Below, in pieces: positions 2,575 to 35,640 of a DNA stretch of 64,000 nt. The notes under the pieces were generated by a model. The model was not told the origin of the DNA and ran no database searches. It worked only from the letters and a program-made list of their open reading frames with translations. The position numbers and the translations under genes were made by a program. Each line of letters starts with the position of its first letter. Position 1 is the stretch's first letter. The stretch lies in the NCBI GenBank assembly GCA_964468745.1, contig CAYXVY010000140.1, positions 5,945-69,944 on the forward strand. Reading direction: 5' to 3'. The stretch is from an uncultured Planctomycetales bacterium (GTDB lineage Bacteria > Planctomycetota > MHYJ01 > JACPRB01).

Positions 2575-3351
2575 ATGAATGAGCGGTCACTGCTCTGCGT
2601 GGCGCATCCGGGACACGAGCTGCGCGTCTACGGCTGGCTGGCGCAAGCGCGTCCCATCGTGTGCGTCGTCACCGACGGTTCGGGACGCTCGGGGCGCTCG
2701 CGCATCGAGGCCACACGCGAGACGCTCCTCGAGACGGGGTGCGTCGTCGGGCCCGTTTTCGCGCCGCTCACCGATGCGGATGCCTATCGCGCCGTCACCA
2801 CGGCCGACGCCGCACCGTTCATCCGCATCATCGACGACCTGGTCCGTACGATCGTCGAATGTGACATTCGATGCCTCGTGGGGGACGCCGCCGAAGGATA
2901 CAACCCGGCCCACGACGTCTGCCGCCTCATCCTCAACGGCGCCGGAGAAGCGTGTCGGCGGAGGGGGCATGCGCTGCGAAACCTCGAATTTCCCCTGTTC
3001 GGCGATCCCGCCGCGTGCCCCGACGCGCTTCGCTCGCAGGCCGTCGAATTGCGCCTCAGCGAGGCAATGTTCGAGGCGAAGCTCAAGGCGGCGCGACGCG
3101 AGGCGGATCTCGGCGTCGATGTGGACCAGGCGCTGCGCGAGGCGGGCGCCGACGCTTTCCGCTGCGAAGTCCTGCGGCCCTGCCTCACCACGGGCCCGAC
3201 TGACGGACTCCCGGACGCACCGACCGTCTACGAGCGATACGGCGAGGGGAAGGTGGCGGAAGGCAAGTACGCGACGGTGATCCGGCGACGTGAGCACGTG
3301 CTTCCCTTGGCGGCCGCCCTATGGCGTCACGCGGAGAGCGCCGGCCCATGA
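2575..3351 (+). CDS. PIG-L / LmbE-family N-acetylglucosaminyl deacetylase-like protein
   Basis: ORF 2539..3351(+). LLCVAHPGHELRVYGW near the N-terminus resembles the AHPDDE motif of PIG-L/LmbE deacetylases. The start is uncertain (2539 or 2575). The stop overlaps the next start (ATGA at 3348-3351). Confidence 0.5.
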   Translation: MNERSLLCVAHPGHELRVYGWLAQARPIVCVVTDGSGRSGRSRIEATRETLLETGCVVGPVFAPLTDADAYRAVTTADAAPFIRIIDDLVRTIVECDIRCLVGDAAEGYNPAHDVCRLILNGAGEACRRRGHALRNLEFPLFGDPAACPDALRSQAVELRLSEAMFEAKLKAARREADLGVDVDQALREAGADAFRCEVLRPCLTTGPTDGLPDAPTVYERYGEGKVAEGKYATVIRRREHVLPLAAALWRHAESAGP

Positions 3352-5426
3352 GCCCGCTGCGCGTCCTCATCACCAACATCACCCTGGCCACGCGGACCGG
3401 CACCGAGTTCTTCGTCCGCGATCTGGCGCACGGCCTCAAGGAGGCCGGCCACCTCCCGATGGTCTACACGCCTGCGCCGGGCTCCGTCGCCGACGAGAGC
3501 CGCGCCGAGGGGATCGCGGTGACGGACGACCTCACACGGTTGCCGGAGCGCCCCGACATCATCCACGGCCACCATACCCTGCAGACCATGGAGGCCGTCG
3601 TGCGCTTTCCCGGGGTGCCGGCGATCTTCGTCGCCCACGACCGCCTCGTCTGGCACGACGCGCCGCCCCTGCACCCGCGCATCCGTCGCCATGTCGCCGT
3701 CGACTACAACTGCCTCGATCGGCTGACGATCGACGCGAAGATCGCGGCGGACCGCACGTGCGTGATTCAAAACGCCGTGGATCTCCGAAAATTCCGCCCG
3801 CGCGATCCCCTCCCCCCGCGCCCGCGGCGGGCCCTGCTCTTCAGCAATTACGCCACGGAGGAGGGTGTTGCGGGGGCCGTTCGCGACGCGTGCGCGCGAA
3901 GCGGCATCGCCCTCGACGTCGCGGGTCAACGGCTGGGAAGCGTTTGCGAGCACCCGGAGTCGGTGCTGGGCGGCTACGATCTCGTGTTCGGGAAGGCGCG
4001 TTGCGCGCTCGAGGCGCTCGCCGTCGGGTGCGCGGTCGTGGTCTGCGATTTCCGCGGAGTCGGAGGTCTCGTGACGCCGGTCGACTTCACGCGCATGCGT
4101 CGCCTCAACTTCGGCATGCGGTTGCTCGTCGAGCCCGTAAGCGCGGAGGTGATCGCGCGCGAGATCGGGCGCTACGATCCGGCGGCCTGCACCGAAGTAA
4201 GCGCCGCCGCGCGGCGCGACGCTTCCCTGGAGGGTCAGGTCGCGCAGTTCGTGCGGCTCTACCACGACGTTCTCGCGGAACCGGCGCCGACTGGGTCGGA
4301 AGCGGAGGCCGTCGGGCGTTACCTCGCTTCCCTTATGCCCGCCTGCACGGAAATCGCCGTGCGCGCCGGCGACGGGCTGGCGGGGAGCGTCATCCATCCG
4401 CGCGCCAACCCCGCGCCAGACGAACGTGCGGCCCTGGAGGCCCAGATTGACGCGATCCGCAACTCTGCCGCGATGCGTGTGCGGGATCGCCTGCTCTCGA
4501 TGCCCGGCGTCGGCCCCGTCGCGCTCTACCTCGCCCGCTGGCTCTCGGGAAAGCATGCAAGCACCGGGCTGCGCCATCCGATGCCCGTCATCGTTGGGGT
4601 CCCGCGCTCGGGGACAACGCTCCTGCGGTTCATGCTCGACGCGCACCCGCTGCTGGCGATCCCTCCCGAGACGGGCTGGCTGCCGGAGGTCGCGAAGATG
4701 AAGCCGACGGGCAACGGTCCCGAGGCGCTCCTGAAGACGATCGCCGATCCCCCCAACTGGTCCGACTTCAAGCTGACGCGAGGAGCGCTCGAGGCGGCGC
4801 TGCGGGCCGTGCGGCCGTTCACGATCAGCGACGGCGTGCGCGCCTTCTACCGGCTGTACGCGCTCCGCTTCGATAAGCCGCGCTGGGGCGAGAAGACGCC
4901 GGGATACGGCCTGCACATGCTCGGCATCGAACGCGTGCTCCCGGAGTCGCACTTCATCCACCTCATCCGCGATGGACGCGACGTGGCCGCGTCCGTGCGC
5001 GGGCTGCCGTTTGCGCCCGGAAATACGATGGAGTCGATCGCGAACGATTGGTGCCGTCGCATTCGCGAGACCCGCGCGCAGGCGCGCCGCTGTCGGCGCT
5101 ATCTCGAGATTCGGTACGAAGATTTGATCCTCAAGCCCGCCGAGACCGTCCAGAGCGTGTGCACATTCATCGATCTCGTCTACGATCCCGCCATGCTCGA
5201 GTACTACCGGCGAAGCCGGGGACGCCTGATGGAGCACGAGGCGGGCGTCGCCCCCGATGGCCGCCCGATCACCAAGCAGGAACGCATCGAGAATCAGCGC
5301 TTCACGATGCAGCCGCCCGATGCTGCTCGGATCGGTCGCTGGCGGCAGGCTCTGAGCGCCCAAGAGATCGCGGAGTTCGAACGGGTCGCGGGACCGCTGT
5401 TGCGCGAACTCGAATATGCCAGATAG
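3348..5426 (+). CDS. Bifunctional glycosyltransferase (GT4-like, N-terminal) fused to a PAPS-dependent sulfotransferase domain (C-terminal)
   Basis: ORF 3321..5426(+), probable start MSPLRVLITN at 3348 (translationally coupled ATGA). The N-terminal ~320 aa have GT-B/GT4 features. The C-terminal ~270 aa carry the sulfotransferase 5'-PSB motif (IVGVPRSGTTLLRFML), 3'-PB motif (IRDGRDVAASV) and the typical WCRRIRE...RYEDLI region. Confidence 0.75.
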   Translation: MSPLRVLITNITLATRTGTEFFVRDLAHGLKEAGHLPMVYTPAPGSVADESRAEGIAVTDDLTRLPERPDIIHGHHTLQTMEAVVRFPGVPAIFVAHDRLVWHDAPPLHPRIRRHVAVDYNCLDRLTIDAKIAADRTCVIQNAVDLRKFRPRDPLPPRPRRALLFSNYATEEGVAGAVRDACARSGIALDVAGQRLGSVCEHPESVLGGYDLVFGKARCALEALAVGCAVVVCDFRGVGGLVTPVDFTRMRRLNFGMRLLVEPVSAEVIAREIGRYDPAACTEVSAAARRDASLEGQVAQFVRLYHDVLAEPAPTGSEAEAVGRYLASLMPACTEIAVRAGDGLAGSVIHPRANPAPDERAALEAQIDAIRNSAAMRVRDRLLSMPGVGPVALYLARWLSGKHASTGLRHPMPVIVGVPRSGTTLLRFMLDAHPLLAIPPETGWLPEVAKMKPTGNGPEALLKTIADPPNWSDFKLTRGALEAALRAVRPFTISDGVRAFYRLYALRFDKPRWGEKTPGYGLHMLGIERVLPESHFIHLIRDGRDVAASVRGLPFAPGNTMESIANDWCRRIRETRAQARRCRRYLEIRYEDLILKPAETVQSVCTFIDLVYDPAMLEYYRRSRGRLMEHEAGVAPDGRPITKQERIENQRFTMQPPDAARIGRWRQALSAQEIAEFERVAGPLLRELEYAR

Positions 5427-12168: not shown

Positions 12169-12382
12169 GGTGGCAGGGCAACCTTCGACGGGCGTAAGAG
12201 CGCCCCACAATGTTCTCTCTGTTTCCTCGGCTTCCTCGGTGTTTATCCCCGTCTCGTGTGGAGCGACCGAGATGCATCGGTCTTCCTGAGATCCCCTTGG
12301 CGTTCTTGGCGGCCCATCCCGAAGGTGCGTTGCCGGGTTGCGTCTCTGCGTCAATCGCCTCCACGGCGATCCGCGCTGCGCC

Positions 12383-14284
12383 CTACGTGGCCTGCTCCGC
12401 CTCCAGCCGCCGGAAGTGCGCCATGATCTGCGCGACGCACGCATCCACGTCCGCCTTGTCCGTGCGCACGACGAGATCAGCCTTCTCCGGCGCCTCGTAT
12501 GGCGCGTCGATCCCCGTCACCGACTTCACCTGCCCAGCCCGCGCCTTCTTGTAGATCCCCTTCGGATCGCGCTCCTCACAGACCGCGAGCGGGCAGTCGA
12601 CGAACACCTCGACGAACTCCCCCTGCCGCAGCCCGCCCCGCACGCGGTCGCGGTCCGCCTTCATCGGCGAAATTAGTGCGACAAGCACGATGAGGCCGGA
12701 GTCGCCGAACAGCTTCGCCACCTCGCCCACGCGACGCACGTTCTCCGCCCTGTCTTCCTCGCTGAACCCGAGGTTCGCATTGAGGCCGTGCCGCAGATTG
12801 TCTCCGTCGAGCAGGTACGTCTGGTATCCCGCGTCGAACAGCCGCCGCTCCAGCGCGACGGCGAGCGTGGACTTCCCCGACCCCGAGAGACCCGTGAACC
12901 AGAGGACGCGCCCATGATGGCCGGTGCGCCGCGCGCGCTCGTCCCGCGAGACCTGGCCCGACACGAACGAGATGTTATGGCTCTTGACGCCCGACAACTC
13001 CGAGCGCAGGTCCTTCGTCGCGGCCGTCGAGATGATCCCTCCCCCCTCGATCCGCGCCCCCGCGTGCAGCACGAAACGGCCGAGCTGCGGCACCCCGCCG
13101 AAGTCGTCGATCGCGATCGGCCGCTGCGTCTCGATCGTGACCTCCGCGATCTGGTTGCGCGCCACCGACTGCGCCTCGACGGCACCGAGCGTCGCAACGT
13201 CCACCACCTGGTGGATCTTCACGACGCGGCAGATGACTTCCTGCGACGTGATCTTCAGCAGGTACTCCTTGCCGGGCATGAGGTCCTGTTTCCCCAGCCA
13301 GAACAGGCGCGCGTCGAATCGGTCCGCCTCGACCGGCGCGTTCTCGAGATGCGACGCGATCTGCCCGCGCTCGACGAAGAGCTGCGCGTCGAGCGTGATC
13401 CCGACCGAGTCGCCCGCGTGCGCCTCCGTCACCGGCGGCGCGCTCCAGCGCTCGATCGTCTTGACGAAGCCGGTCTTGTTCCACGGCGAGAACACGAGCT
13501 GATCCCCGACGCGAAGCGTGCCGGACTCGATGCGGCCGGCGAAGATGCGCGTCGTTTCGTTCTGGCGGTAGACGTCCTGGATCGGGAAGCGCAGCGGGCC
13601 GTCGGTGATGGGGACGCGCGACTTGAAGCCGTGCATCGCCTCGGCCACCGTCGGGCCGGTGTACCACGGCATGTCCGTCGCGCGCGCGACGACGTTCGCG
13701 CCCGCCTTCGCGGAGATCGGAATGAACACCGATTTGCCCGCACCGGTTGCCTTCAGGTAGGCCCCGTATTCCTTCTCGATGTCGCGGAAGGTCTGCTCCG
13801 ACCACCCGACGAGATCCATCTTGTTGACGAGCACGGCGACCTGGTGGAGCCCGAGCAGGCGCAGCAGCAGCGCGTGACGGCGCGACTGCTCGCGGATCCC
13901 CTCGCGCGCGTCGACGAGGACGAGCGCGGCGTCGGCCGTCGAAGCCCCCGTGATCATGTTCTTCAGGAATTCTTCGTGCCCGGGCGCGTCGATGATGACG
14001 AACGGGCGTCCGTTGACGTGCATCCAGACGTGCGCGGCGTCGATCGTGATCCCCTGGTCGCGCTCGGCCTGCAGCGCGTCGAGGGCGAACGCGAACTCGA
14101 ATTCGAGACCGCGCTTCTCGGAGATCTTCCGGATCTGTTCGAGCTTCCCTTCCGGGAGCGAACCGGTGTCGTGCATGAGCCGGCCGACGAACGTCGACTT
14201 GCCGTGGTCGACATGGCCGAGCATCACCACGCGGACCGGTGCGGTCGTGGGGGTGACGGCCTTTTCTTTGGTAGTCACGGGCAT
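12383..14284 (-). CDS. cysNC: Bifunctional sulfate adenylyltransferase subunit 1 (GTPase, CysN) fused to adenylylsulfate (APS) kinase (CysC); NodQ-like
   Basis: N-terminal GTPase motifs ([23 protein letters not shown]) of CysN/EF-Tu-like. C-terminal APS kinase ([39 protein letters not shown]-loop kinase signature). 633 aa. Confidence 0.9.
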
Positions 14285-14290
14285 GATTCT

Positions 14291-14520
14291 TCCCGAAGAC
14301 CGCGGAGCTCGCGGAGTTGCCGCAGAGTCGCTTGGGGCGCGGAGAGCTTCCTTCGAGTCCGCCGGCCCGCGCGCAGCGCGGGCGCGGTCAGGCAGATGCC
14401 GGATCCGGAACGCTCGGCCCCTCTTCGCGAGCGTTCCGGATCCGGCATCTGCCTGACTGCTCGTGCGGGCAAAGCCCGCACGCCGGCGGACCTCTGCGCC
14501 CCGAACCCCTCTGCGGTTCC
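14291..14520. repeat. Copy 1 of a ~200-230-bp GC-rich palindromic structured repeat element; it lies in the intercistronic gap between cysD and cysNC
   Basis: Perfect 27-bp inverted repeat (caggcagatgccggatccggaacgctc / gagcgttccggatccggcatctgcctg, ~14389-14455) with loop ggcccctcttcgc. Flanking arms match the second copy at 35641-35845 in inverse orientation (e.g. ctccgcgccccaagcgact, gtgcgggc..gcccgcac). Confidence 0.75.
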
Positions 14521-14557
14521 TCCGCGCGCTCTGCGGTTTGTCTTCATCTTCTGCGGG

Positions 14558-15367
14558 TTACATGTATCCGGAGGTGCGAAGACGCTCGAACGCGTCCTCC
14601 GATTCCTGGTCCTGTGCTCGGCCCGATCTCTCGCTCGTCTTCGTGCGCCGCAGCTCCTCGACGATCTCCGCGACGCTCGTGGCGGTGGACTCGATCATGC
14701 CGGTGCACGGCGCGCATCCGAGGCTGCGGTAGCGGCGTCCGTCCTTCGCGTAGTAGAGGTCGATGATCGGGATCGACTCGCGCTGGATGTACTCCCACAC
14801 GTTGAGTTCGGTCCAGTGGAGCAGCGGATGAATGCGTATGTGCGTGCCGGCCGGGAATTCGGTCTGGTACTGGTCCCAGAATTCCGGGGGCGCGTCGCCG
14901 AAGTTCCACGTGAGGTTCTTGTCGCGCGGCGAGAAGTAGCGCTCCTTCGCGCGCGTGCTCTCCTCGTCGCGGCGGATGCCGAGGAGCAGGCCGTGATACC
15001 CCTTGAGTTCGAGGACCTGCTTGAGGCCCTCCGTCTTGAGCGAGGAGCAGCAGACGACGCGGCCGAGGGTGTGGTTCATCCCGCCGGCGAGGGCGGCGAC
15101 GTTCTTGCCGACCACGAGGTCGAGCCCCAGCTCCTTCGCGACGCGGTCGCGGTACTCGATCATCGACGGGATTTTGTAGGTCGTGTCGACGTGGATGACG
15201 GGGAACGGGACGGCGCCGAAGAATGCCTTGCGGATGAGCCAGAGCAGGACGGTCGAATCCTTGCCGATCGACCAGAGGCACCCGAGGTTTTTCAGCTTCG
15301 CGCGCGCCTCGCGGATGATGTAGACGCTCTGCGCTTCGAGGGCGTCCAAGGGGTCGCGGTGAGCCAT
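14558..15367 (-). CDS. cysD: Sulfate adenylyltransferase subunit 2 (CysD; PAPS reductase-like ATP sulfurylase small subunit)
   Basis: ORF 14558..15367(-). [12 protein letters not shown] (PP-loop), LGIRRDEE, and overall CysD architecture. The ATG is preceded by TTGAGA-n17-TATAAT-n11. Confidence 0.9.
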
Positions 15368-15378
15368 AAGAGGGGCAG

Positions 15379-15384
15379 ATTATA
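15379..15384 (-). promoter_or_regulatory. -10 box (CCCCTATAATC) with TTGAGA -35 for cysD
   Basis: Minus-strand sequence reads TTGAGAccgcgcgcgcctgcccCTATAATctgcccctctt-ATG(15367). Confidence 0.55.
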
Positions 15385-15486
15385 GGGGCAGGCGCGCGCG
15401 GTCTCAATGGCTGCGCGCGCGTGGGACGTGTGAGGTTGGAGCTTTGAAGGGCGGAACGCGGAACGGTGACCCACCCTTCCAACGAC

Positions 15487-15918
15487 CTACTCGCCGCGCC
15501 ACGCGAGTTCGGTGATGCGATCCGCGTTCAGAATGCGCACGTCGAATCGATCGAACACGTCCGCCCTGCCCAGGAGCAGGGGCGCTTGATCCGTCTGCGC
15601 CCACCCGATGTCCGCGTAGAAGCGATGGCGCCCGATCTTGAACTCGGCTCGACGCTTCACAACCCAGATCCAGCCGCCGATGCCCCCGGCTCGGAATACC
15701 CTGTCATGGGATTCCTTGCGAAATCCGAGCAGCTCGCCCACGCTCTTTGGAACCAGCGTGAAGTCCGATCCGGAGTCTACGAGCATCACGTGGGGCAACC
15801 AGTTGTTGCGCTGCGAGCGGATAAACACCATCGCCGAGGGACGATGGATCGGTCCATAAAGCTCCGACGTCCCGATCATGTAGGGAAATCGGATGGGCGG
15901 CCGCGTTGCCGAGTTCAT
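15487..15918 (-). CDS. Retropepsin-like (clan AA) aspartic protease
   Basis: MLVDSGSDFTLVP contains the D-S/T-G active-site triad of retroviral-type aspartyl proteases. Length is ~143 aa. Confidence 0.6.
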   Translation of the reverse strand: MNSATRPPIRFPYMIGTSELYGPIHRPSAMVFIRSQRNNWLPHVMLVDSGSDFTLVPKSVGELLGFRKESHDRVFRAGGIGGWIWVVKRRAEFKIGRHRFYADIGWAQTDQAPLLLGRADVFDRFDVRILNADRITELAWRGE

Positions 15919-15924
15919 TTCCGC

Positions 15925-16137
15925 CTAGACGATCAGGATGTCCTCGGTCGGCACCTTCAACAGGACCGGCTGGCGGCGCGGATGCCGCTTACGCGCTCGC
16001 TCGACGACCGTGCGCGCATTCTTTCCGGACGCCGCAACGCGGCAGTCGACGATGGCGACGTACAACCCCCGATATCGACTGAGGTCCGTACGCGACAGCC
16101 ACTCCATCGTCGGGTCCATTTTTCTCGCGGCTCCCAT
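15925..16137 (-). CDS. Small protein partner of the retropepsin-like protease (DUF-type, ~70 aa)
   Basis: Track ORF 15925..16230(-). A TAGAAT -10 at 16145-16150 sits 7 nt upstream of the internal ATG at 16137 (MGAARKMD...GLYVAIVDCRVAASGKNARTVVERARKRHPRRQPVLLKVPTEDILIV). It is immediately upstream of, and co-oriented with, the protease gene. Confidence 0.4.
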   Translation of the reverse strand: MGAARKMDPTMEWLSRTDLSRYRGLYVAIVDCRVAASGKNARTVVERARKRHPRRQPVLLKVPTEDILIV

Positions 16138-16202
16138 CGGCGTTATTCTACTGCGCCGCTTTATGGCGGGGTAGCGGATTCCATTCGGGGTAAGGAACGG
16201 TG

Positions 16203-16872
16203 ATCCGCACCTTCCACCTTCCAACCTCAAACCTCAAACTCCTGCCCCAGTCCCCACCCCGCCTCCGCTCCGCGCCCCACGTCACTCCGCGCTTCCTTGG
16301 CGCGCTCCGCGTTTTCTTCGGGAAGTCCCGGGATGAAGTCACCCGCGGGGTATCCGTTCGCCGCAGACCTTCCGGATTCAACGCAGAGGTCGCTGAAGGA
16401 TTTGGATGGGGGCGAAGTTTTTCCTCCACCATTCCAATGTCCTCTCGGTTACCTCGGCTGCCTCGGTGTTGTCGGAGGGGTGGGGCAGCAGGCGGAAACC
16501 TCGTGGATGACACTGGGCAATCCGAGCAAACAGAGAAGCCCATCCATGCGAGGGCGTTCCCTGCTCCTCCCCTGCGCGCTCCGCGCTTTCTTCGGATAGT
16601 CCCGGGATGAAGTCGCACGCGGAGTATCAATCCGCCTCAGAATGACCCGCACCTTCCAACTTCCAACTTCCAACTTCAAACCTCAAACGCCTCCCCCACT
16701 CCCCATCCCGCCTCCGCTCCGCGCCCCCAGCCACTCTTGTCCTCCTCAGCGGGCTCCGCGTTTTCTTCGGATAGTCCCAGGATGAAGTCGCACGCGGGGT
16801 ATCCGTTCGCCTCAGAATGACCCACACCTTCCAACTTCCAACTTCCAACCTCAAACCTTAGACTCGTCCCCC
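16203..16872. repeat. Tandem array of a ~173-bp repeat (3 full or partial copies plus a fourth partial copy running into the wzm start codon); copy 2 is interrupted by a ~185-bp insert
   Basis: Unit landmarks ccgcaccttccaac(ttccaac)n ctcaaac...ccgcctccgctccgcgcccc...gcgctccgcgttttcttcggatagtcccgggatgaagtcgcacgcggggtatccgttcgcctcagaatgacc recur at ~16203, 16563 (tail only), 16647 and 16820. Each unit has internal heptad microrepeats TTCCAAC x2-3 and CTCAAAC x2. Confidence 0.85.
16859..16864 (+). promoter_or_regulatory. TAGACT -10-like box 8 nt upstream of the wzm ATG (leaderless-type)
   Basis: ccttAGACTcgtccccc-ATG(16873) with no SD. The same TAGACT-n8/9-start arrangement occurs at fcl (47400) and gmd (about 48417). 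Confidence 0.4.
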
Positions 16873-17628
16873 ATGCCCTCCTGGTTCGAGCTCCTGCGCG
16901 CGCTCGTCGCGAAGGACTTCAAGGTCCGCTACAAGAGCACGGCGCTGGGGTTCGTGTGGTCGATCGCGAACCCGGTCATGTTCGGCCTGACGTTCTACGT
17001 GGTCTTCGAGAACGTCTTCCGCGGCGGGCAGAAGAACTTCCTCGTCTTCCTGCTCGCGGGGATGTTCCCGTGGCAGTGGTTTGCGAGCACCGTGGGCGGC
17101 GCGCCCGGCACGTTCGTCGGCAACGCGGGCCTGATCAAGAAGGTCCGGTTCCCGTGGATGCTGCTCCCGACGGCGGCCCTTGTCAGCAACCTCCTGCACT
17201 TCCTGCTGGCGCTGGCGGTGGCCGTCCCGCTCCTCGGGATGAAGGGGATCTGGCCGACACCGGTCTGGCTGATCGGCATTCCGGCCCTGCTCCTCATCCA
17301 GGGGGCGCTGACACTGGGAGTCGCGCTGCTGATCGCATCGATCAACGTCATCTTCCGCGACCTCGAGTACATCACGCAGATCGTGCTGCAGTTGGTATTC
17401 TTCCTCACGCCGATCTTCTACTCGGCAACGGCGCTGCCGGAGGGGACGCGGTCGATCCTGCGCTGGAATCCGATGTGCTACGTGATTCCGGCGTGGCAGG
17501 AGCTGGTGCTGGAGGGCCGCATGCCCTGGCAGACGGCGGGGATCGGCGCGGCGATCGCGGCGGCGACGTTGCTGATCGGCTACGGAGTCTATCGACGGAT
17601 GGAGTGGCGGCTGGCGGAGTCGCTATAG
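16873..17628 (+). CDS. wzm: ABC-2 type polysaccharide export permease (Wzm/TagG/KpsM-like)
   Basis: 251 aa, 6 predicted TM segments, ABC-2 family signature region (FVWSIANPVMFGLTFYVVF...). Confidence 0.8.
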   Translation: MPSWFELLRALVAKDFKVRYKSTALGFVWSIANPVMFGLTFYVVFENVFRGGQKNFLVFLLAGMFPWQWFASTVGGAPGTFVGNAGLIKKVRFPWMLLPTAALVSNLLHFLLALAVAVPLLGMKGIWPTPVWLIGIPALLLIQGALTLGVALLIASINVIFRDLEYITQIVLQLVFFLTPIFYSATALPEGTRSILRWNPMCYVIPAWQELVLEGRMPWQTAGIGAAIAAATLLIGYGVYRRMEWRLAESL

Positions 17629-17765
17629 AGACACATGGGTTTTCTAACGCAGAGATCGCTGATTTGTTTTGAGAGCCGGAGAGGCCCATCTCAAAGAGTT
17701 AGTCTGCGGTCTCTCCTTGTCCTCTTCTGCGCCCTCGGCGTTATTCGGGAAGATTGGGCGCGATC

Positions 17766-18527
17766 ATGAGTATCACGGCTGACCCCGCGGTTGAATTCCA
17801 CGACGTCGTCAAACGCTTCCACCGCGTCCACGCCCCGATGGGATTGAAGTACGCGATGCTGCATCCCGCGGAGTTCGTCCGCGTGTGGCGCTCGGCCCCG
17901 ACCTTCACGGCGCTCGACGGGGTGTCCTTCACGGTGAAGCGCGGAGAGTCGCTGGGGATCTGCGGCCGAAACGGCAGCGGGAAGAGCACGACGATGACGT
18001 TGATGGCGGGCGTAATGCGTCCGACGAGCGGCCGCGTGGTCGTGCGCGGGAGGATCGCGCCGCTGCTGGCGCTCGGCGCCGGTTTTCATCCGGACTTGAG
18101 CGGGTCGGACAACATCACGCTGAACGGGCTGCTCCTCGGCCTGTCCCGGCGGGAGATCGCGGAGCGTCGCGAGGCGATCATCGAGTTCGCCGGGCTGCGC
18201 GAGTTCATCAACGAGCCGATGCGCACATACTCCTCCGGCATGTTCATGAGGCTGGGGTTCGCGGTGGCGGCGCATACCGATCCCGAGGTCCTGCTGGTGG
18301 ACGAGCTGTTGTCGGTCGGCGACTTCGAGTTCCAGGCGAAGTGCAAGGCGAAGATGCACGAGTTCCGGAAGTCCGGCGTCACGATCGTCTTCGTGAGTCA
18401 CACGGTGGCGGAGATGGAAGCGATGTGCGATCGCGCGATCTGGCTCGACGGCGGGAAGGCGCGCATGGACGGCACGCCGGTCGAGGTGGACAAGGCTTAT
18501 CGCGGCGCGCTGGGGGCGGCGTCGTAG
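17766..18527 (+). CDS. wzt: ABC transporter ATP-binding protein for polysaccharide export (Wzt/TagH/KpsT-like); no C-terminal carbohydrate-binding extension
   Basis: Walker A GRNGSGKST, ABC signature YSSGMFMRLGFA, Walker B LLVDELLSVGD, H-loop. Track ORF starts at 17754 (TTG); the ATG at 17766 (MSITADPAVEFHDV) is preferred. Confidence 0.85.
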   Translation: MSITADPAVEFHDVVKRFHRVHAPMGLKYAMLHPAEFVRVWRSAPTFTALDGVSFTVKRGESLGICGRNGSGKSTTMTLMAGVMRPTSGRVVVRGRIAPLLALGAGFHPDLSGSDNITLNGLLLGLSRREIAERREAIIEFAGLREFINEPMRTYSSGMFMRLGFAVAAHTDPEVLLVDELLSVGDFEFQAKCKAKMHEFRKSGVTIVFVSHTVAEMEAMCDRAIWLDGGKARMDGTPVEVDKAYRGALGAAS

Positions 18528-24778: not shown

Positions 24779-25945
24779 CTACCGTCTGAGCCGCAGCAGA
24801 GCTCGCGTTGTTTCCCCCTCATGGACTGCTTCGCTGAGGATCTCCATGCGGAGTCCAATCGACGCTCCGAGTTTCTTGAAGGCATTCAGATTCCACTCGA
24901 CAAGTGCGCGCGTTCCGCGGGTTTCAGAGACATCCTTCGCACAAAATATATCGGCGAGAATGCGACCTCCATCTCCCATGCACCTCGTGGCGTCAGTTAG
25001 GAGTCCGCGAGACTCATGCGGATAGGTGTGCGTTAGGACGCTCATGAAGAGCACAAAATCGAAGGGTCCTCCAACAATTTCGAGTGGCAGACTGGCGTCC
25101 ATATTCCGCGTGAAGGAAAATGTGGAGCGACTGTAGCGCTGTCTGCAGAAAGCCACAGGCTTTTCCGCGATATCTGTACCGCAGTAGCGCCCCGTCGAAT
25201 CCAAGAAGCTGTGTAGTGGTCGTGTTAACAGCCCTGTTCCGCAACCCACATCGAGTACGCGGGAATTGCGCGCCAATCCAAATTCCATCAACATGCGCAA
25301 CTTGTCGTCGCCCAGTGTGACGAACTGTTCCTCGGACGGAACTCCGACGACCGACCAGTAGTCGCGAGTAAAGTCGGCGTTTTCCCAGACAGTGGCATAT
25401 TCGCCAAAATCGCCAGGCCGCGCTCCAGCGATTTCAACTGTGATCGGTGAGACTCTTGAGCCCCGATCCTTGAACCAGGTAATGTTTTCGTGAACTAAGT
25501 CAAATTCGAGCGTACACAGACTTGGAGTGGCAGGCGCCTGAACTGTCGCGCGAACTAAGACCTCTGCGCCGGAATCAATATCGGTTGGAAAATCGGTCCG
25601 AATCCCGTCATAGACAAGTACTTTCCCGTCTTGTCGCAGCCAATGGTATGCCAGCCGAACGGCATTTGGTTTGTTTCCAGCAGGCCACCGATGGGGAGTA
25701 GCGTTACGAACGCGCACGGGCACTTGAACAATCTCTCCTTCGTGCAGCTTGGCAGGTGCCTCTAGTACGTGGATTTGGGCGCGGTATGCCACGCTGGGCA
25801 TGCTGTCCAGTGGCAAGGTGGGGTCGCCCAACTGCAGTTCTCCTTTTTCTGAGTCCGACTTAGTATCTGAGTTTTGCAGCAGATGCAAGAAGCGATTCGC
25901 CGAGAGCCTTCGAATCTCGCGAGCTATTTCTTCGCCGGTTGACAT
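24779..25945 (-). CDS. Class I SAM-dependent methyltransferase (C-terminal) with a ~190-aa N-terminal domain of unknown function
   Basis: VLDVGCGTGLL (SAM-binding motif I) and downstream motifs (FDFVLFMSVLTH). Noticeably AT-richer than the background. Confidence 0.7.
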   Translation of the reverse strand: MSTGEEIAREIRRLSANRFLHLLQNSDTKSDSEKGELQLGDPTLPLDSMPSVAYRAQIHVLEAPAKLHEGEIVQVPVRVRNATPHRWPAGNKPNAVRLAYHWLRQDGKVLVYDGIRTDFPTDIDSGAEVLVRATVQAPATPSLCTLEFDLVHENITWFKDRGSRVSPITVEIAGARPGDFGEYATVWENADFTRDYWSVVGVPSEEQFVTLGDDKLRMLMEFGLARNSRVLDVGCGTGLLTRPLHSFLDSTGRYCGTDIAEKPVAFCRQRYSRSTFSFTRNMDASLPLEIVGGPFDFVLFMSVLTHTYPHESRGLLTDATRCMGDGGRILADIFCAKDVSETRGTRALVEWNLNAFKKLGASIGLRMEILSEAVHEGETTRALLRLRR

Positions 25946-25982
25946 AGGATCGACGCGCCCGATAAGCTCCGCTGGCGAACGA

Positions 25983-27293
25983 ATGGATAACCACTTGCAT
26001 CGCGTTGAGATTCAGCACGTTGCCCCGACCACCGTTGATCCCTTGGTGCTCTGGGGGGCAGGGCTGAACTCGCCCACGCTTGGTACGAGCGGCAGTTACT
26101 CAATTGGAATTGCAGGTTGGGTATTACCGCGCGCGGGACAAAGGGCTAAAGTCCAGTTCACTTGTGGACGCCGAATCCTCAGTGAACTAGAAATTGACCG
26201 GTGGCGACCTGACGTGCTGAAGCACTTCCCCGATATTCCCGGTGCCGAGCATTGCGGATTCTACGGGTCGCTACGGACGGTAGAACTCCCTAGTCAGTTC
26301 GATATCCAGATCTCCATCAAGTTGGAAGGCCACGGATTGCTTCCCATGACGACCATTCGCGGCTGTCGCAATTCCATCGTTCCTGCGCCGGTGGAATCAC
26401 TGCGTCCAATCTTTATTACATCGTTAGGGCGCTGCGGCTCGACCTATCTCGCCCTGCTGCTAAAAAACCATCCCGAGATAGTAGTTGCTGGCCCCTTCCC
26501 GTACGAAAACCACGTACTCCCTTACTGGGTTTCAGTTTTCGAGACCCTCTCAGCTCCACAGTCTTTCTTAAAGCAGCTCGCCTCGCCCCTGCGTGGACAC
26601 TATTGGTGGCTGGGCGATGCGCGCGACTCAGTAGAGACCTACCTTGAGCGCTTTCCCAACGTAGATCTCGTTGGTGGCGACGCGGTTGACGCAGCCGCAA
26701 CGTTCTGTCGTGCTCGCGTTTACGCGTACGATGCACAACTTGCAGCACGCGTCGGCAAGCCGAAGGCTGTTTATTTCGCCGAGAAGTTACCTCCGTCCGG
26801 CCCCAACCCCCTCGCGGAACAACTGTTCCCCACGACGCGTGAAATCGTACTTCTTCGCGATCCCCGAGACATTATCGCGTCCGTGCTCGCGTTCAATCGA
26901 AAGCGGGGTTTCGCATCGTTTAGCCGCGAACTCGTTCAGAGCGATCTAGAGTATGTGGCTTCCATTCGACATCAGTGGCTCGCGCTGGCCGTCGGATGGC
27001 GGAACCGAAAGACAAATGCGATAGTTGTACGTTACGAAGATCTCATGGAGAAACGTGACGAGACCGTCCGAAGCGTCTTTGGTGCATTGAATCTGTCAGC
27101 TTCTGATGACGTGCTTCGACACGTGGTGGAAGCCTCCGCACAGGAAGATGTCGCTCTTCAAGAAGCTCATATGACATCAACAAGCACTGAAAGTTCGATT
27201 GGCAGATGGAAGCGGGAGCTTCCAAGTGAGCTCCAGAAAGCCTGCAGGGACACCCTAGGTGACGCGCTGGAGGAGTTCGGTTACGCAGTGTAA
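25983..27293 (+). CDS. Sulfotransferase family protein (PAPS-dependent)
   Basis: 5'-PSB motif ITSLGRCGSTYLALLL and 3'-PB motif LLRDPRDIIASV. Track ORF 25749..27293 overlaps the convergent methyltransferase gene by ~200 bp. Starting at the internal Met (MDNHLH..., 25983) removes the overlap and the low-complexity N-terminus. Confidence 0.75.
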   Translation: MDNHLHRVEIQHVAPTTVDPLVLWGAGLNSPTLGTSGSYSIGIAGWVLPRAGQRAKVQFTCGRRILSELEIDRWRPDVLKHFPDIPGAEHCGFYGSLRTVELPSQFDIQISIKLEGHGLLPMTTIRGCRNSIVPAPVESLRPIFITSLGRCGSTYLALLLKNHPEIVVAGPFPYENHVLPYWVSVFETLSAPQSFLKQLASPLRGHYWWLGDARDSVETYLERFPNVDLVGGDAVDAAATFCRARVYAYDAQLAARVGKPKAVYFAEKLPPSGPNPLAEQLFPTTREIVLLRDPRDIIASVLAFNRKRGFASFSRELVQSDLEYVASIRHQWLALAVGWRNRKTNAIVVRYEDLMEKRDETVRSVFGALNLSASDDVLRHVVEASAQEDVALQEAHMTSTSTESSIGRWKRELPSELQKACRDTLGDALEEFGYAV

Positions 27294-27412: not shown

Positions 27413-28150
27413 ATGCGCCACCGGTCCGAAGTCGCCTACTTCCAGCCCACCAGCTGGACTGTCGTCGAAGAAGCGCAGGACAAGGCCGGACCCGCGGCGC
27501 GTGCCGCCTACGAACGGCTCGCCGCCGGCTACTGGAAACCCACCTTCTTCTTCCTCCGCAAGCGCGGGCTCCGGCGCGAGAACGCCGAAGACGCCACCCA
27601 GGACTTCTTCGCCTACTTCTTCGACCGCGACTTCATCCAGAACGCCGACCCCGCCAAGGGGAAGTTCCGCACCTTCATCATCGCCCACCTCGAAAACTTC
27701 CTCGCCAACCAGCGGCGTAACGCCCACACCGTGCGACGCGGCAAAGGCACCCACACCATCAGCGCCGACTTCGGCGATGCCGAGCAGGAACTCTCCGGCA
27801 TGCCCGCCTCCATCGAAACCGCCGACGCCGTCTTCCTCCGCTCGTGGGCCCTCGAAACGATGGCCAAGGCGTGGGAGCTGCTCCGCCTCAAGATGATCGA
27901 GAGCGGCGAAGGCCACTACTTCGGCCCCCTCCACACCTTCTTCAACAACGTGAAGGACCGGCCCACCCGCGCCCAGCTCGAGGAACAGCTCGGCCTGTCC
28001 TACAAACAAGTCGACCACCTCATCGACGGGACGCGCAAGCAGTTCAAGGATCAGCTCCGCCTCGTCGTCCGTCCCACGGTCGAAAACGAGAGCGAAGTGA
28101 AGGCGGAAATCGTCGCACTCTTCGACGCCCTGGGCGCGACTCAGCCGTAA
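27413..28150 (+). CDS. ECF-type RNA polymerase sigma factor (sigma-70 regions 2 and 4)
   Basis: Region 2 (ENAEDATQDFFAYFF...FRTFIIAHLENFLANQRR) and a region 4 HTH (RAQLEEQLGLSYKQVDHLIDGTRKQFKDQL). 245 aa. Confidence 0.8.
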   Translation: MRHRSEVAYFQPTSWTVVEEAQDKAGPAARAAYERLAAGYWKPTFFFLRKRGLRRENAEDATQDFFAYFFDRDFIQNADPAKGKFRTFIIAHLENFLANQRRNAHTVRRGKGTHTISADFGDAEQELSGMPASIETADAVFLRSWALETMAKAWELLRLKMIESGEGHYFGPLHTFFNNVKDRPTRAQLEEQLGLSYKQVDHLIDGTRKQFKDQLRLVVRPTVENESEVKAEIVALFDALGATQP

Positions 28151-28273: not shown

Positions 28274-28774
28274 ATGAACGCAAACGTAAACAAGAAGGAC
28301 GGGGGCGAAACGACGCCGAAGGGCGTCCTGCCGCGGCAGGACGATGCACCGGCTTCCCAGCGCACCACCGTGGCGCGGCACGACGCTGCACCGGAATCCC
28401 AGCGCGCCTCCGTGGCGGGGCACGGCATTGCACCGGCTTCCCAGCGCACCACCGTGACGCGGCACGACAGCACATCGGCTTCCCAGCGCACTTCCGTGCC
28501 GAGTCACGACACTGCATCGGCATCTCGACGCACCTCCATGGCGGGGCATGGCACTGCATCGGCAACCCGGCGCACTAGCGTGGCGGGGCACGGCGCTGCA
28601 CTGGCCACCCGGCGCACTTCCGTGCCGCGGCACGACACTGCACCGGCATCCCGATGCACCTCCGTGACGCGGCAGGACGTCGGGATCGCGATCCTCACCC
28701 ACTTCGATCGAGGACCTCCTGTGCATCCATCGCTCTCACGCAGTAACGCGACGGGGAGTGTTTCCCCGTCGTGA
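28274..28774 (+). CDS. Repetitive Ser/Thr/Arg/His-rich protein (8 x 14-aa repeats) encoded directly downstream of the ECF sigma factor; strand assignment tentative
   Basis: AGGGAG-like SD before the ATG at 28274. Body is 8 near-identical 14-residue units (APASQRTTVARHDA...). The complementary strand is also open (PRHGGALGSRC... repeats), so strand is not certain. Confidence 0.35.
   Translation: MNANVNKKDGGETTPKGVLPRQDDAPASQRTTVARHDAAPESQRASVAGHGIAPASQRTTVTRHDSTSASQRTSVPSHDTASASRRTSMAGHGTASATRRTSVAGHGAALATRRTSVPRHDTAPASRCTSVTRQDVGIAILTHFDRGPPVHPSLSRSNATGSVSPS
28346..28681. repeat. 42-bp tandem repeat x8
   Basis: Units gcaccggcttcccagcgcaccaccgtggcgcggcacgacgct and variants are repeated 8 times head-to-tail (28346, 28388, ... 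28640). Confidence 0.9.
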
Positions 28775-28831: not shown

Positions 28832-29554
28832 ATGTTCATTCCGCAAAACCACAACGCCAGCCAGCGGCTGGTGGATACGTTCGGTACCTATCTCGCGTCC
28901 CGCCTGAAGGCGAACGCCGAGACCCGCAGTCTGTACGAGACCTTCCAGAAGGCGCAGGAGACGCTCGACGCCTCCAATGCCCTTCAGCGGAAGTCCCGGC
29001 GCGGGATGTTGGAGGCTCAGTCCGCGCGTGATCACGCCGCGTTCCTGATGGGGCGCGTGATCGCCAAGTTCCAGCTCGCCGTGCTCGCGCACGTCGAGAA
29101 GGTCCGGACGAGCCCGCTGTACGGCCGTTACTTCAAGGACGGGATGGAAGCGATCGCGCTCGTCCCGCCGCATCGCCTGGTCGAGAACGTGAAGACGTTC
29201 GAACGCGACCTGGCGATGTCCGCGGACGCCGAAGCTCTGCGGTCCTGGGTCCCGGTGCTCGTTGAAGGCCGGATGACCCTGGAGAAGTCCATGGTCGAGT
29301 ACTCCGACGCTCGGATCGTGTACACCAACGCGGTGAACGCCGAGGAGACGGAGCGGCTCCACTGGGTGGAGGCTTACCGCACCGTCGCCGGCGACCTCGT
29401 CGGGATCTACCCGGCCGATCGTCGGAAGATCGAGAGCTTCTTCCGGAAGGGTCGCAAGCCGCGCGGCGGCACGACCCCGACGGAAGCGGCCACCTCCGAC
29501 GAGACGAAGGTGATCGGTCCGCCGACGGCGGGGGAGACCCGAATCGCCATGTAG
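28832..29554 (+). CDS. Hypothetical protein (240 aa)
   Basis: Good SD (ttAGGAGatctaacc-ATG). No recognisable motifs. Lies between the sigma factor/repeat-protein genes and the Ser/Thr kinase. Confidence 0.5.
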   Translation: MFIPQNHNASQRLVDTFGTYLASRLKANAETRSLYETFQKAQETLDASNALQRKSRRGMLEAQSARDHAAFLMGRVIAKFQLAVLAHVEKVRTSPLYGRYFKDGMEAIALVPPHRLVENVKTFERDLAMSADAEALRSWVPVLVEGRMTLEKSMVEYSDARIVYTNAVNAEETERLHWVEAYRTVAGDLVGIYPADRRKIESFFRKGRKPRGGTTPTEAATSDETKVIGPPTAGETRIAM

Positions 29555-29745
29555 ACACCGCACAGTCGCGAGAACGGGGAAGCGGGAAGCGAGAATCGAC
29601 CCGCGACTCGATCGAAGGGCGATGGGAGACGTCAGGTTGCACGCACCCTCCATCCGCGCGATCGAACGTTGAGGTCGTGACTCGCTTCCCCTTCCCCGGA
29701 TCTCCACACCGTTCCCTTTTTCAAACAATTTGATACTCTTCCGAG

Positions 29746-29811
29746 CGGCCTTGCGGCCTCGCTCACCATGAACGGATTCGACTCGGCCTTGCGGCCTCGC
29801 TCACCATGAAC
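29746..29811 (+). repeat. 28-bp direct duplication (cggccttgcggcctcgctcaccatgaac x2) spanning the kinase start codon; the upstream copy creates a 13-codon uORF overlapping the kinase ATG
   Basis: Copies at 29746-29773 and 29784-29811. uORF atg(29768)...tga(29807-29809) = MNGFDSALRPRSP*. Its stop overlaps ATG 29806 (ccATGAac). Confidence 0.8.
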
Positions 29812-31326
29812 TGCCCCGAGTGTAATGCCCCCGACGTCGCCGGCATCTGCTACGCCTGCGTGATGGGCAAGCCAAAGGAAATGTCCTCTGGCCCGGCTTC
29901 GTCGCAGCCGGCGCCCGTCGATCCCGCGAAGGATCTCCCCGCCCTCAAGCGCGGCGACAAGATCGGCGGCTGGTATATCCTCTCACTGATCGCTTCGGGC
30001 GGTCACGCCGTCGTTTACAAAGTCGAAGCCGCCGGCGTCATCGTCGCGACCAAGATGCTGCGACCGTCGATGGCGAAGCGCCCTGAAGTCCTCGCGCGCC
30101 TCCAGCGCGAGAAGGAACTGTTGCAGTCCTTCGACCATCCCAACATCGTAAAGGTCCTCGACAGCGGCAAGGGTCCGCCGCCGTGGTACGCGATGACGCT
30201 CGTCAATGGCAAGTCGCTGCGGCAACGGCTCGATGAGGGGCGCGTACCGGCGACCGAAGCGACGCGCATCGGCGACGCAGTCTGCTCCGTCGTCGAGTAC
30301 GTCCATTCGAAGGACGTCGTGCATCGCGACCTCAAGCCCGCGAACATCATCCTCGACACGCAGGGCCACGTGTGGCTCGTGGACTTCGGCGTCGCGAAGC
30401 ACAAGTCGGACCTCCCCCCGAAGAACGGCCCGACGGGCGCCGACACGCCGGATCAGCAGACCGAGGACGGGCAGTTCGTCGGGACGCGCGACTACGCGTC
30501 GCCGGAGCAGCTCGCGAACTCTCACCTGGCGGACCAGCGGTCGGACATCTACTCGCTCGCCCTCATCCTGTACGAGATGCACACGGGGATCCGGCCGCCG
30601 ACGATCGGCAAGGACGGGCGTCCGGTGCTCACGCAAACGGCGGCGGGGGGGACGCCGCCCGGGGTGCGCAAACTGAGCGCGCCGTCGAAGGATGCGCCCG
30701 TGACGCGGGAGTTCGACGACGCGGTGCTGGAGTCGCTCCTCGTGGATCCCGATCTCCGCCCGCAGTCCGTGGCGGAGTTGAGGGCGGCGCTCAAGGAGGC
30801 GGCGAAGTGGATCTCCTATAAGACGGTCATGGACGAGAAGAAACTCCAGGCGTGGCAGATCGATCAGGCGCGGGAGTGTCATCCGGTCAAGACCCGCATG
30901 TACCGGGGCCGGCTGTTCCTGGATCGAGCCGGTTTCGAGTATGCGCTCCGCGCGTGGCGGCACAAGGGGTCGCAGCCGGACGCGCAGGGGTCGCAGACGG
31001 CGGCGCTAACGACCCTGCTGGCGATCTTCGCGTGCGGCTTCCTGCTGGCGGGGCACGCCGCGTGGGACGATCGGGGGTTGAGCGCGGGTCTGTTCGTGTT
31101 CGGCCTGGGGCTCGGGATCGCGACGTTCCTATTCCACGCGAAGGCGGACAAGGAGATCCGGGAGTCGCAAGGCGGGCTGACGGGGATGGGGTGGGTATGG
31201 TTTGGGACGCTGCTGGCGTCGCTCGCGTTGACGGTTGCGCTGCTGTCGGCGATGACGCGGGAAAAGCCGAAGGTGAAGACGCCGGGGCCGGCGACGTCAG
31301 GCGAAGACGTCCGGCGCGTGCGATGA
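29806..31326 (+). CDS. Serine/threonine protein kinase with N-terminal zinc-ribbon (CxxC...CxxC) and C-terminal transmembrane segments
   Basis: CPECNAPDVAGICYAC; kinase subdomains (VATKML, HRDLKPANIIL, DFGVAKH, GTRDYASPEQ). C-terminal hydrophobic segments (ALTTLLAIFACGFLLAG..., LFVFGLGLGIATFLF, WVWFGTLLASLALTVALL). Confidence 0.85.
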   Translation: MNCPECNAPDVAGICYACVMGKPKEMSSGPASSQPAPVDPAKDLPALKRGDKIGGWYILSLIASGGHAVVYKVEAAGVIVATKMLRPSMAKRPEVLARLQREKELLQSFDHPNIVKVLDSGKGPPPWYAMTLVNGKSLRQRLDEGRVPATEATRIGDAVCSVVEYVHSKDVVHRDLKPANIILDTQGHVWLVDFGVAKHKSDLPPKNGPTGADTPDQQTEDGQFVGTRDYASPEQLANSHLADQRSDIYSLALILYEMHTGIRPPTIGKDGRPVLTQTAAGGTPPGVRKLSAPSKDAPVTREFDDAVLESLLVDPDLRPQSVAELRAALKEAAKWISYKTVMDEKKLQAWQIDQARECHPVKTRMYRGRLFLDRAGFEYALRAWRHKGSQPDAQGSQTAALTTLLAIFACGFLLAGHAAWDDRGLSAGLFVFGLGLGIATFLFHAKADKEIRESQGGLTGMGWVWFGTLLASLALTVALLSAMTREKPKVKTPGPATSGEDVRRVR

Positions 31327-35512: not shown

Positions 35513-35640
35513 TCTCTCAGGCCCTTTTAACGCCGAGAGCGCAGACGCGCTGCAGAAGAGAGCGCAGGTTTGTGGTGGAACGTGGGGCGTGGTCCTTCCG
35601 GAACTTCCGGACAACCGCTGAGCGCGCAGGGGCAAGCAGA

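Follow-up and report, generated by a model that had tools for sequence, protein, structure and literature searches.

NodP/NodQ-type operons, which are dedicated to the supply of 3'-phosphoadenosine 5'-phosphosulfate (PAPS) for sulfation, are known from rhizobial Nod factor biosynthesis and from the mycobacterial CysDNC system. The synthesis of adenosine 5'-phosphosulfate (APS) by ATP sulfurylase requires CysD and CysN together, and CysD is useless without CysN. Palindromic repeats between the cistrons of an operon are likewise familiar, examples being the repetitive extragenic palindromes (REPs) and bacterial interspersed mosaic elements (BIMEs) at the malE-malF and hisJ-hisQ junctions of enterobacteria, and REP doublets forming hairpins (REPINs) are mobilised by REP-associated tyrosine transposases (RAYTs) of the Y1 HUH type. 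A REP has been defined as a palindromic unit of 20-40 bp ending in GTAG or CGTC (PMC3733652), and intercistronic REPs affect mRNA stability, with protection of the upstream mRNA and differential expression as consequences (PMC3184786). In REPIN hairpins compensatory changes are common, and a 'clover' whose arms bear small hairpins has been described as an alternative fold (PMC3116915). Correia and enterobacterial repetitive intergenic consensus (ERIC) elements are miniature inverted-repeat transposable elements (MITEs) of 100-150 bp that are frequently transcribed along with their neighbours and influence the expression of these genes; their hairpins are binding sites or cleavage substrates of RNase III in Correia elements and of RNase E in ERIC elements (PMC2649163, PMC3184786). 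Besides, the intervening sequences (IVSs) of rRNA are selfish insertions with a terminal stem that are excised by RNase III, and the Coxiella IVS contains tandem heptamers (PMC4990558). Here we analyse a 64,000-nt stretch of DNA from an uncultured Planctomycetales bacterium (GenBank assembly GCA_964468745.1, contig CAYXVY010000140.1, positions 5,945 to 69,944; the whole stretch is called the window below), in which the gap between cysD and cysNC, the two genes of a PAPS-synthesis operon, is occupied by a large palindromic element. We consider it rather probable that this element is an inserted, non-coding palindromic repeat of about 250 bp, tolerated or co-opted by its host, whose effects are by-products and not a conserved regulatory design. 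The genes and the two full copies of the element are as follows.

14558-15367, minus strand: cysD, ATP sulfurylase small subunit, 269 aa
12383-14284, minus strand: cysNC, 633 aa, CysN GTPase subunit fused to a C-terminal APS kinase (CysC)
14285-14557, minus strand: element copy 1, occupying the entire cysD-cysNC gap
about 35604-35868, plus strand (equivalent to the minus strand in copy 1): element copy 2, inverted relative to copy 1 and about 21 kb away

As in NodP/NodQ-type operons, CysD is followed by a CysN-APS kinase fusion on one strand, amid sulfotransferase and glycan genes; unlike in those operons, a structured insertion of exactly 273 nt (91 codons) parts the two genes in place of an overlap or abutment. 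In profile searches CysD matched PF01507 at 3.2e-40 and reached 347 bits with NCBIfam NF003587 (cut-off 195), and it is 75-79% identical to CysD of the related loci L003 and L005. CysNC contains a GTP_EFTU domain (8.9e-44, residues 18-199) and an APS_kinase domain (1.5e-67, residues 458-607) and passes both the TIGR02034 model of CysN (370 bits, cut-off 336) and the NF003013 model of APS kinase (283 bits, cut-off 163), its score of 657 bits with the bifunctional model NF004035 being slightly below the cut-off of 715. The cysNC reading frame is intact, with 0.92 G+C at third codon positions in a window of 65% G+C, and a search among 5.8 billion proteins retrieved a closest CysNC relative of 70% identity. 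An earlier, sequence-only reading of this DNA had placed cysD and a fused cysN-cysC on the same strand inside a glycosyltransferase cluster and had assigned them to the NodP/NodQ type. Its coordinates are exact, both genes lying on the minus strand, and the assignment is borne out by the profile matches of CysD and CysNC, by the sulfotransferases of the locus and by the recurrence of the neighbourhood in relatives. The same reading also proposed that the element differentially regulates APS versus PAPS synthesis, which does not hold, as CysC is fused to CysN and the junction thus parts the two subunits of ATP sulfurylase and not two reactions.

Folding calculations confirmed that the 273-bp gap is filled by a large hairpin element, as had been suggested. 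On the mRNA strand the gap RNA folds at -201.1 kcal/mol, compared with -128.9 +/- 5.6 kcal/mol for 200 dinucleotide shuffles (z = -13.0), none of which folded as well (0/200), and at -226.6 kcal/mol together with its flanks. The opposite strand folds at -209.1 kcal/mol, equal to or better than the mRNA strand, and the gap as single-stranded DNA (ssDNA) takes up the same fold at -121.3 kcal/mol (z = -11.6). Since both strands and the ssDNA fold alike, the palindromy belongs to the DNA and not to one RNA strand. In the order of the mRNA, copy 1 consists of the following parts.

14482-14537, minus strand: 5' outer arm, with four CGCRGAG motifs at 14492, 14509, 14520 and 14529; pairs with the 3' outer arm
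14463-14481, minus strand: small hairpin A, GTGCGGGC-TTT-GCCCGCAC
14387-14457, minus strand: central hairpin, arms 14387-14416 and 14428-14457, 30 perfect bp and an 11-nt loop
14365-14385, minus strand: small hairpin B, GCGCCCGCGC-TGC-GCGCGGGC
14299-14366, minus strand: 3' outer arm, with four CCTCYGCG motifs at 14301, 14310, 14321 and 14338

In this predicted fold the outer arms would close a four-way junction that bears the two small GC hairpins and the 30-bp hairpin. The description of the element as perfectly paired therefore applies to the central 30 bp, whereas the outer arms, of about 55 nt each, are imperfect; self-complementarity of the element as a whole amounts to 69% over 255 nt (blastn). 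CGCRGAG occurs eight times in 250 nt, against about 0.3 expected from its window-wide density, with spacings of 9, 11 and 17 nt per arm. Tandem Repeats Finder detected no tandem repeats inside the arms, and the count of four motifs per arm rests on the motif search and not on that program. In the fold that includes the flanks, 12 nt separate the cysD UAA from the helix base (GAAGAC/GUCUUC), and 10 nt separate the other side of this base from the cysNC AUG. The element is non-coding: a six-frame concatenate of both copies (1077 aa) had no match among 5.8 billion proteins, and a profile built on the only frame that is open in both had none among 1.84 billion representative proteins.

The second copy that had been noticed earlier does exist and shares the fold of the first. 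Copy 2 is 77-83% identical to copy 1 and forms an identical four-part structure (-194.1 kcal/mol, z = -12.2). Two convergent genes, 34541-35512 (plus strand, glycosyltransferase family GT2) and 35894-38011 (minus strand, GT2/PMT_2), leave 381 nt between their stop codons, and copy 2 lies there, so that its neighbours are glycosyltransferases with no tie to sulfate activation. Comparison of both copies with RNAalifold over the whole element yielded 86 pairs, eight of which had changed on both sides with pairing kept. Within the 135-nt core there are 56 pairs, comprising 48 identical ones, seven with compensatory changes, one changed from G-U to G-C and none broken. The central hairpin accounts for six compensatory pair changes, again with no pair broken, and in hairpin A all nine pairs are identical and all three loop bases differ. 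Over the core, 17 of the 23 unpaired columns differ between the copies, as compared with 15 of the 112 paired ones. By our own calculation, the chance that six arm changes in the 29-pair stem are matched by the right base at all six partners is about 3e-9. We conclude that pairing has been maintained and the loop sequence has not. A covariance model built from the core scored 143-146 bits on the forward strand (146 for copy 2) and still 98-102 bits on the reverse strand. Such strand-symmetric folding, together with unconserved unpaired positions, is the signature of a palindromic repeat and not of a leader that senses a ligand or factor.

In addition to the two full copies, three stretches related to the 3' arm of the element were found.

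16258-16345, plus strand: solo arm, CTCCGCGCCCC...CTCCGCGTTTTCTTCGGGAAG
16707-16794, plus strand: second solo arm
16545-16620, plus strand: third solo arm, partial

All of these instances, the two full copies and the three solo arms, are extragenic, and the solo arms lie in a repeat-rich stretch upstream of cysD. This stretch (16200-16880) belongs to a divergent intergenic region of 954 nt and is built of units of 160-175 nt with 85-88% identity, 16208-16367 pairing off with 16657-16816 and 16565-16703 with 16740-16878. Each unit consists of a CTTCCAA heptamer array, a solo arm and a conserved TTTCTTCGG(G/A)(A/T)AGTCCCGGGATGAAGTC tail.

We were curious to know whether the gap is an ancestral feature of the operon. 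The comparison set comprised the seven loci encoding the nearest CysNC relatives, listed here with the identity of their CysNC to that of the window and the spacing between cysD and cysNC.

L003: CysNC 70%, spacing -38 nt (overlap)
L005: CysNC 70%, spacing -38 nt (overlap)
L114: CysNC 59%, spacing -38 nt (overlap)
L115: CysNC 63%, spacing +7 nt
L113: CysNC 63%, spacing +40 nt
L116: CysNC 57%, spacing +52 nt
L112: CysNC 63%, spacing +481 nt, a different insertion

None of the seven carries the element at the cysD-cysNC junction. Apart from this, L003 and the window are syntenic (GT2, ATP-binding cassette (ABC) ATPase, ABC-2 permease, cysD, cysNC, GT4-sulfotransferase), and the cysD-cysNC-sulfotransferase neighbourhood recurs in L003, L112, L113 and L114. 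The CysD C-terminus, SGYM followed by the stop, is identical in the window, L003 and L005, and the conserved CysN core of the relatives starts right past that stop. Because the junctions of the relatives are tight and without the element, the 273-nt gap is best explained as a lineage-specific insertion; the ancestral cysD and cysNC overlapped or nearly abutted and were thus presumably translationally coupled. The core covariance model had no match in about 118 kb of the relatives' DNA, and their loci contain no perfect inverted repeat of at least 14 bp, save one small one in L119. Two candidate relatives of the element were rejected, namely a weak match in L005 (62% identity, unstructured, z = +0.55) and a match of 20 bits in L120, which is an ordinary gene-end hairpin.

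The borders of the insertion deserve a few remarks. The 3' end of cysD reads ...GGATACATGTAA, within which TACATGTA is an 8-nt palindrome (14561-14568). The same palindrome ends cysD in L003, L005 and L112, and two independent stem-bounded insertions, those of the window and of L112, start immediately past it. TACATGTA may be an insertion hotspot, or may merely reflect the conserved C-terminal Tyr-Met. Directly 3' of copy 1 (14276-14284) stands ATGCCCGTG, which is the cysNC start codon plus two codons, and directly 3' of copy 2 (35873-35884) stands ATGCCCCGCGTG. The start codon of cysNC may therefore have been supplied by the flank of the element, a match too short to exclude chance. The ancestral start used in L003 and L005, inside the cysD sequence GATGCC, reads GACGCG in the window.

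The repeat could not be assigned to a recorded family. Rfam 15 gave no matches in the whole window at gathering thresholds, and relaxed thresholds retrieved generic miRNA-precursor hairpins only (47 bits, against a gathering score of 168). A pattern for the 3' core (GCGGGCCGGCGGAC-N8-14-CTCYGCGCCCC) had a single match in 185,579 species genomes, in a Phaeovulum coding sequence and attributable to chance, and none in the JGI metagenomes. A looser arm pattern matched 105 metagenome loci, none of them similar to the element or to the repeats at 16.2-16.9 kb (blastn), and gave no match in viral contigs; blastn of the element against 72,556 plasmids was equally without a match. With filters off, the covariance model of the 135-nt core recovered just the two copies in the window, the next best score being 18 bits. 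Among the databases searched, the family would thus be visible in this organism only. Retron non-coding RNA, integron attC sites and CRISPR were considered and dropped, as no reverse transcriptase, integrase or cas gene adjoins either copy and there are no unique spacers.

Comparison with described element classes places the repeat nearer to some than to others. Like REPs and BIMEs, it is a GC-rich extragenic palindrome that lies between the cistrons of one operon and also between convergent genes, with nested palindromes; unlike them, it measures about 250 nt, compared with 20-40 nt per REP, and shares no sequence similarity. GTAG, CGTC and GACG are absent from both copies, the sole CTAC being found in the hairpin B loop of copy 2. 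The long hairpin formed by inverted arms with a variable spacer, and its compensatory changes, resemble those of REPINs, but hairpins A and B are not reverse complements of each other, as two inverted copies of a single REP would be, and the length is two to three times that of a REPIN. No transposase domain, RAYT included, was detected among the window open reading frames (ORFs) scanned. From Correia and ERIC elements it differs in sequence and host phylum and in having a four-way junction and not a simple hairpin; furthermore, no outward promoter, integration host factor site or TA target duplication was recognised in it. The general features of a MITE are present, with terminal inverted repeats, a size within 100-400 bp, no coding capacity, dispersed copies and solo arms, and absence from the orthologous junction in the seven relatives, all of them distant (<=70% CysNC identity). 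The element is unlike an intrinsic terminator, its hairpin being without a U-tract on the transcribed strand, and it is equally unlike a known riboswitch or other cis-regulatory RNA, with no Rfam match, no counterpart in the relatives and an unconserved unpaired core. The element is best read as a new, unrecorded sequence family of the general kind formed by REP/BIME/REPIN, MITE and Correia repeats.

The transcriptional context of the element was assessed by promoter and terminator scans, and a single feature stood out.

15379-15407, minus strand: putative sigma-70-like promoter, TTGAGA-17-TATAAT, with 11/12 consensus matches (0.1 expected in shuffles)

The cysD ATG follows 11 nt after its -10 hexamer, and because the site ends so close to the start codon, the cysD mRNA would be leaderless or nearly so. 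No sigma-70-like promoter was detected between the element and cysNC, the 3' arm included, either by the scan or by eye, and no U-tract terminator was found on the minus strand from 14100 to 15700 or in copy 2. Read-through from cysD must occur if cysNC is to be expressed, since cysNC is intact, no promoter of its own was found, and ATP sulfurylase needs CysD and CysN; hence the element is very probably carried on the cysD-cysNC transcript. We propose that the cysD promoter would transcribe the element within the operon mRNA, and that the folded helix would bring the cysD stop next to the cysNC start, making the insertion topologically 'closed' and allowing coupling to persist in part. On reaching the cysD stop, a ribosome would melt the lowest part of the stem beside a weak GGGAAG Shine-Dalgarno-like sequence, which might provide a route for the ancestral coupling to survive. 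A perfect RNA duplex of 30 bp is a canonical RNase III substrate, and arrays of stems impede 3' exonucleases. RNase III would be expected to cut the 30-bp duplex and so to split the transcript into a cysD RNA and a cysNC RNA. The cysD mRNA would gain 3' protection from the array of stems, with some loss of read-through or polarity, and the CysD:CysNC ratio would change as a result. These expectations of cleavage, 3' protection and polarity are drawn by analogy with REP/BIME, Correia and ERIC elements and with rRNA IVSs. As a separate observation, cysD and cysNC share a reading frame and the 273-nt element has no stop in that frame, so that read-through of the cysD TAA would yield a CysD-linker-CysNC fusion. 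The chance expectation for such an open frame is roughly 0.1 at this G+C, and the open shared frame across the element (14285-14569) is probably a coincidence.

Several other explanations have to be set against that of a tolerated or co-opted inserted repeat. The one that we take most seriously, unlikely as it seems to us, is that of a host-selected 3'-end module, that is, a bidirectional terminator or mRNA stabiliser, of which copy 2 would end two convergent transcripts and copy 1 would act as an internal attenuator and provide more cysD than cysNC message. The position of copy 2 exactly between two convergent stop codons speaks for it, as do the maintenance of stems by compensatory change and the strong hairpins that follow other genes of the window within a few to 80 nt (29570-29704, z = -5.1; 58590-58656, z = -4.9; 61936-62028, z = -3.9). 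In neither copy, however, is the hairpin followed by a U-tract on the strand concerned, a strong attenuation between CysD and CysN would be without obvious benefit as both are needed jointly, and the relatives do without any hairpin at the junction. Such a module would overlap with an inserted repeat in mechanism and differ from it only on whether the effect is selected. The sequence-only reading favoured an element with RNA effects on the operon transcript; its position and promoter context are consistent with transcription, but it appears very improbable that the element is a dedicated cis-regulatory RNA, be it a riboswitch, an attenuator or a protein-binding leader, through which cysNC would respond to sulfur or PAPS status. 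The intergenic position on the presumed transcript, the elaborate multi-helix junction and the structure kept between the copies would all suit such a leader. The element is nevertheless absent from this junction in 7/7 relatives; copy 2 has no sulfur-metabolism context, the antisense strand folds equally well, and the junction and loop nucleotides are the least conserved, the reverse of what is seen in ligand-binding RNAs. Rfam offered nothing beyond the sub-threshold miRNA-precursor hairpins, and APS and PAPS synthesis are inseparable at this junction.

We give equally little credence to a role at the DNA level, in which the element would be a cruciform or protein-binding array, for instance a recombination or inversion pair flanking 14.5-35.6 kb or a BIME-like nucleoid or gyrase site. 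Two inverted copies 21 kb apart, phased CGCRGAG motifs (four 7-mers per arm, 9-17 nt apart) and an extreme ssDNA fold would fit this idea; yet the roughly 45 window ORFs scanned include no recombinase, integrase or transposase domain, the copies at 77-83% identity are too diverged for homologous inversion, an inversion would part cysD from cysNC, and any binding protein is a conjecture. As long palindromes can misassemble and the source is a metagenome-assembled contig, we also considered an assembly artefact or chimeric join at the palindrome, which is hardly credible: an independent Logan assembly of run SRR9952630 contains the same 273 nt at 100% identity with both flanking genes, these genes are intact and in the expected order, and a diverged second copy with compensatory changes cannot come from misassembly. 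The interpretation as an inserted palindromic repeat is itself open to several objections. Inspection of the ends of either copy revealed no convincing direct repeat that could be a target-site duplication, the exact ends not being fixable from two diverged copies. The check for selfish copies, as far as the 64-kb window allows, counts two full copies and three partial arms, all known instances thus being in this one window. The nearest relatives are distant (about 70% identity in CysNC and 82% in RimO), leaving the insertion event undated and unbracketed. The promoter scan was confined to sigma-70-type consensus sequences. Read-through, cleavage by RNase III and a retained coupling are effects that we infer. 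Moreover, selection by the host for a functional hairpin would also account for strongly kept stems with saturated loops.

Other stem-bounded insertions occur at comparable places. In L112 (ENA ERZ28533575, 4520-4995), a gene for a 125-aa protein of PF05635, the 23S rRNA IVS protein family (S23p; 51 bits, cut-off 33.8), is placed precisely between the stop codon of cysD and the start codon of cysNC and is flanked by 49-nt inverted arms of CTCAATC heptamers with 86% complementarity. This cassette has the same architecture as an rRNA IVS, tandem heptamers included, but lies in an mRNA operon. The element of the window likewise resembles a 23S rRNA IVS in that a long terminal stem closes off the insert, with stop and start at 12 and 10 nt from the helix base; in contrast to the IVS, which lies in helix 25 or 45 of 23S rRNA and in some cases carries an S23p ORF, it resides in an mRNA operon and has no ORF, and it shares no sequence with the L112 cassette, so that the likeness is architectural only. 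A further cassette at 15425-16239 of the window is bounded by heptamer-built inverted arms (15425-15450 against 16210-16239, CTTCCAA/CTCAAAC, 83% complementary) and contains two genes.

15925-16230, minus strand: DUF5678 gene (5e-12)
15487-15918, minus strand: 143-aa ORF with a weak retropepsin-like match (E = 0.005)

The position is that between cysD and the ABC-2 gene, for which L003 has merely 121 nt. Taken together, these cases suggest that stem-bounded insertions may form a wider class in this lineage. One may go further and speculate that copies 1 and 2, the DUF5678 cassette and the L112 S23p cassette form one undescribed class of mobile Planctomycetota 'intervening sequences' at gene junctions of mRNA operons, bounded by stems whose arms consist of short tandem motifs and tolerated as the stem rejoins the flanks (with coupling kept or with removal by RNase III), the element here being co-opted to set the CysD:CysNC stoichiometry; this we hold to be distinctly doubtful. 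Hairpins with arms of 7-9-nt tandem motifs were also observed at gene ends, at 29570-29704, 38153-38304, 58590-58656 and 61936-62028 of the window and at 11919-12008 of L120. Their motifs are CCGAG (9-nt period), GGGAAGC and ACTCAWAA, with CGTTCA in L120, and three of them fold with z = -3.9 to -5.1. A related one-sided motif, CTCGG in three copies, stands at 12207-12244, downstream of cysNC, and at 16434-16471.

The surroundings of the operon were examined with domain searches. The glycan locus spans 2.5-51.6 kb and encodes more than ten glycosyltransferases, an ABC-2 exporter pair and a methyltransferase, as well as an initiating sugar transferase, a flippase-like protein and GDP-mannose dehydratase/epimerase proteins. 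The genes that bear most directly on sulfation and export are listed here.

3321-5426, plus strand: GT4 and sulfotransferase fusion gene (Sulfotransfer_3, 4e-29)
25749-27293, plus strand: second sulfotransferase-domain gene (Sulfotransfer_3, 1.6e-16; Sulfotransfer_1, 2e-8)
16873-18527, plus strand: ABC-2 permease and ATPase pair of the polysaccharide-export type, divergent from cysD and syntenic with L003

The 3321-5426 product is 57% identical to a protein of L003 (tblastn), where its ortholog is encoded directly downstream of cysNC, and it is a likely PAPS consumer. Because sulfotransferases, glycosyltransferases and the ABC-2 exporter surround cysD-cysNC, a dedicated PAPS supply for glycan sulfation is indicated, and the conclusion that cysD-cysNC is a genuine operon for this purpose is well supported. 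The best named matches of the adjoining RimO gene, at up to 81% identity, are found in metagenome-assembled genomes of Planctomycetota only. Some further features of the window are recorded in passing. Midway through the glycan locus lies a Ser/Thr protein kinase gene (29806-31326; Pkinase, 3e-37). Part of the 681-nt space between the ORFs 27413-28150 and 28832-29554, both without a family match, is taken up by 8.3 tandem copies of a partly palindromic 42-nt unit (28332-28678, 78% matches); this array has no unique spacers and is not CRISPR-like. A run of paralogous HEAT-repeat genes (60087-60989, 61011-61856 and 61760-62881, with 60-76% DNA identity; also 63843-64000) includes proteins (60087-62881) with Lys/Glu/Asp-rich C-terminal tails that arise from tandem repeats of 12-24 nt.

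The operon itself is an ordinary one, and its value for annotation is that it identifies a locus of about 50 kb as a pathway for a sulfated polysaccharide that is equipped with a PAPS supply of its own. Planctomycetota are better known as degraders of sulfated glycans. The element, on the other hand, appears to represent a repeat family not recorded before, from a Planctomycetota lineage that has been little sampled, with an unusually clear conservation of stems only. It provides a natural example in which a very large palindromic repeat splits the genes of one enzyme, which are normally translationally coupled, and it offers a test of how such an insertion is tolerated, be it through a closed stem that joins stop and start, through processing by RNase III or through read-through. 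For genome scans, the case of this cysD-cysNC junction implies that a spectacular hairpin within an operon need not be a regulator.

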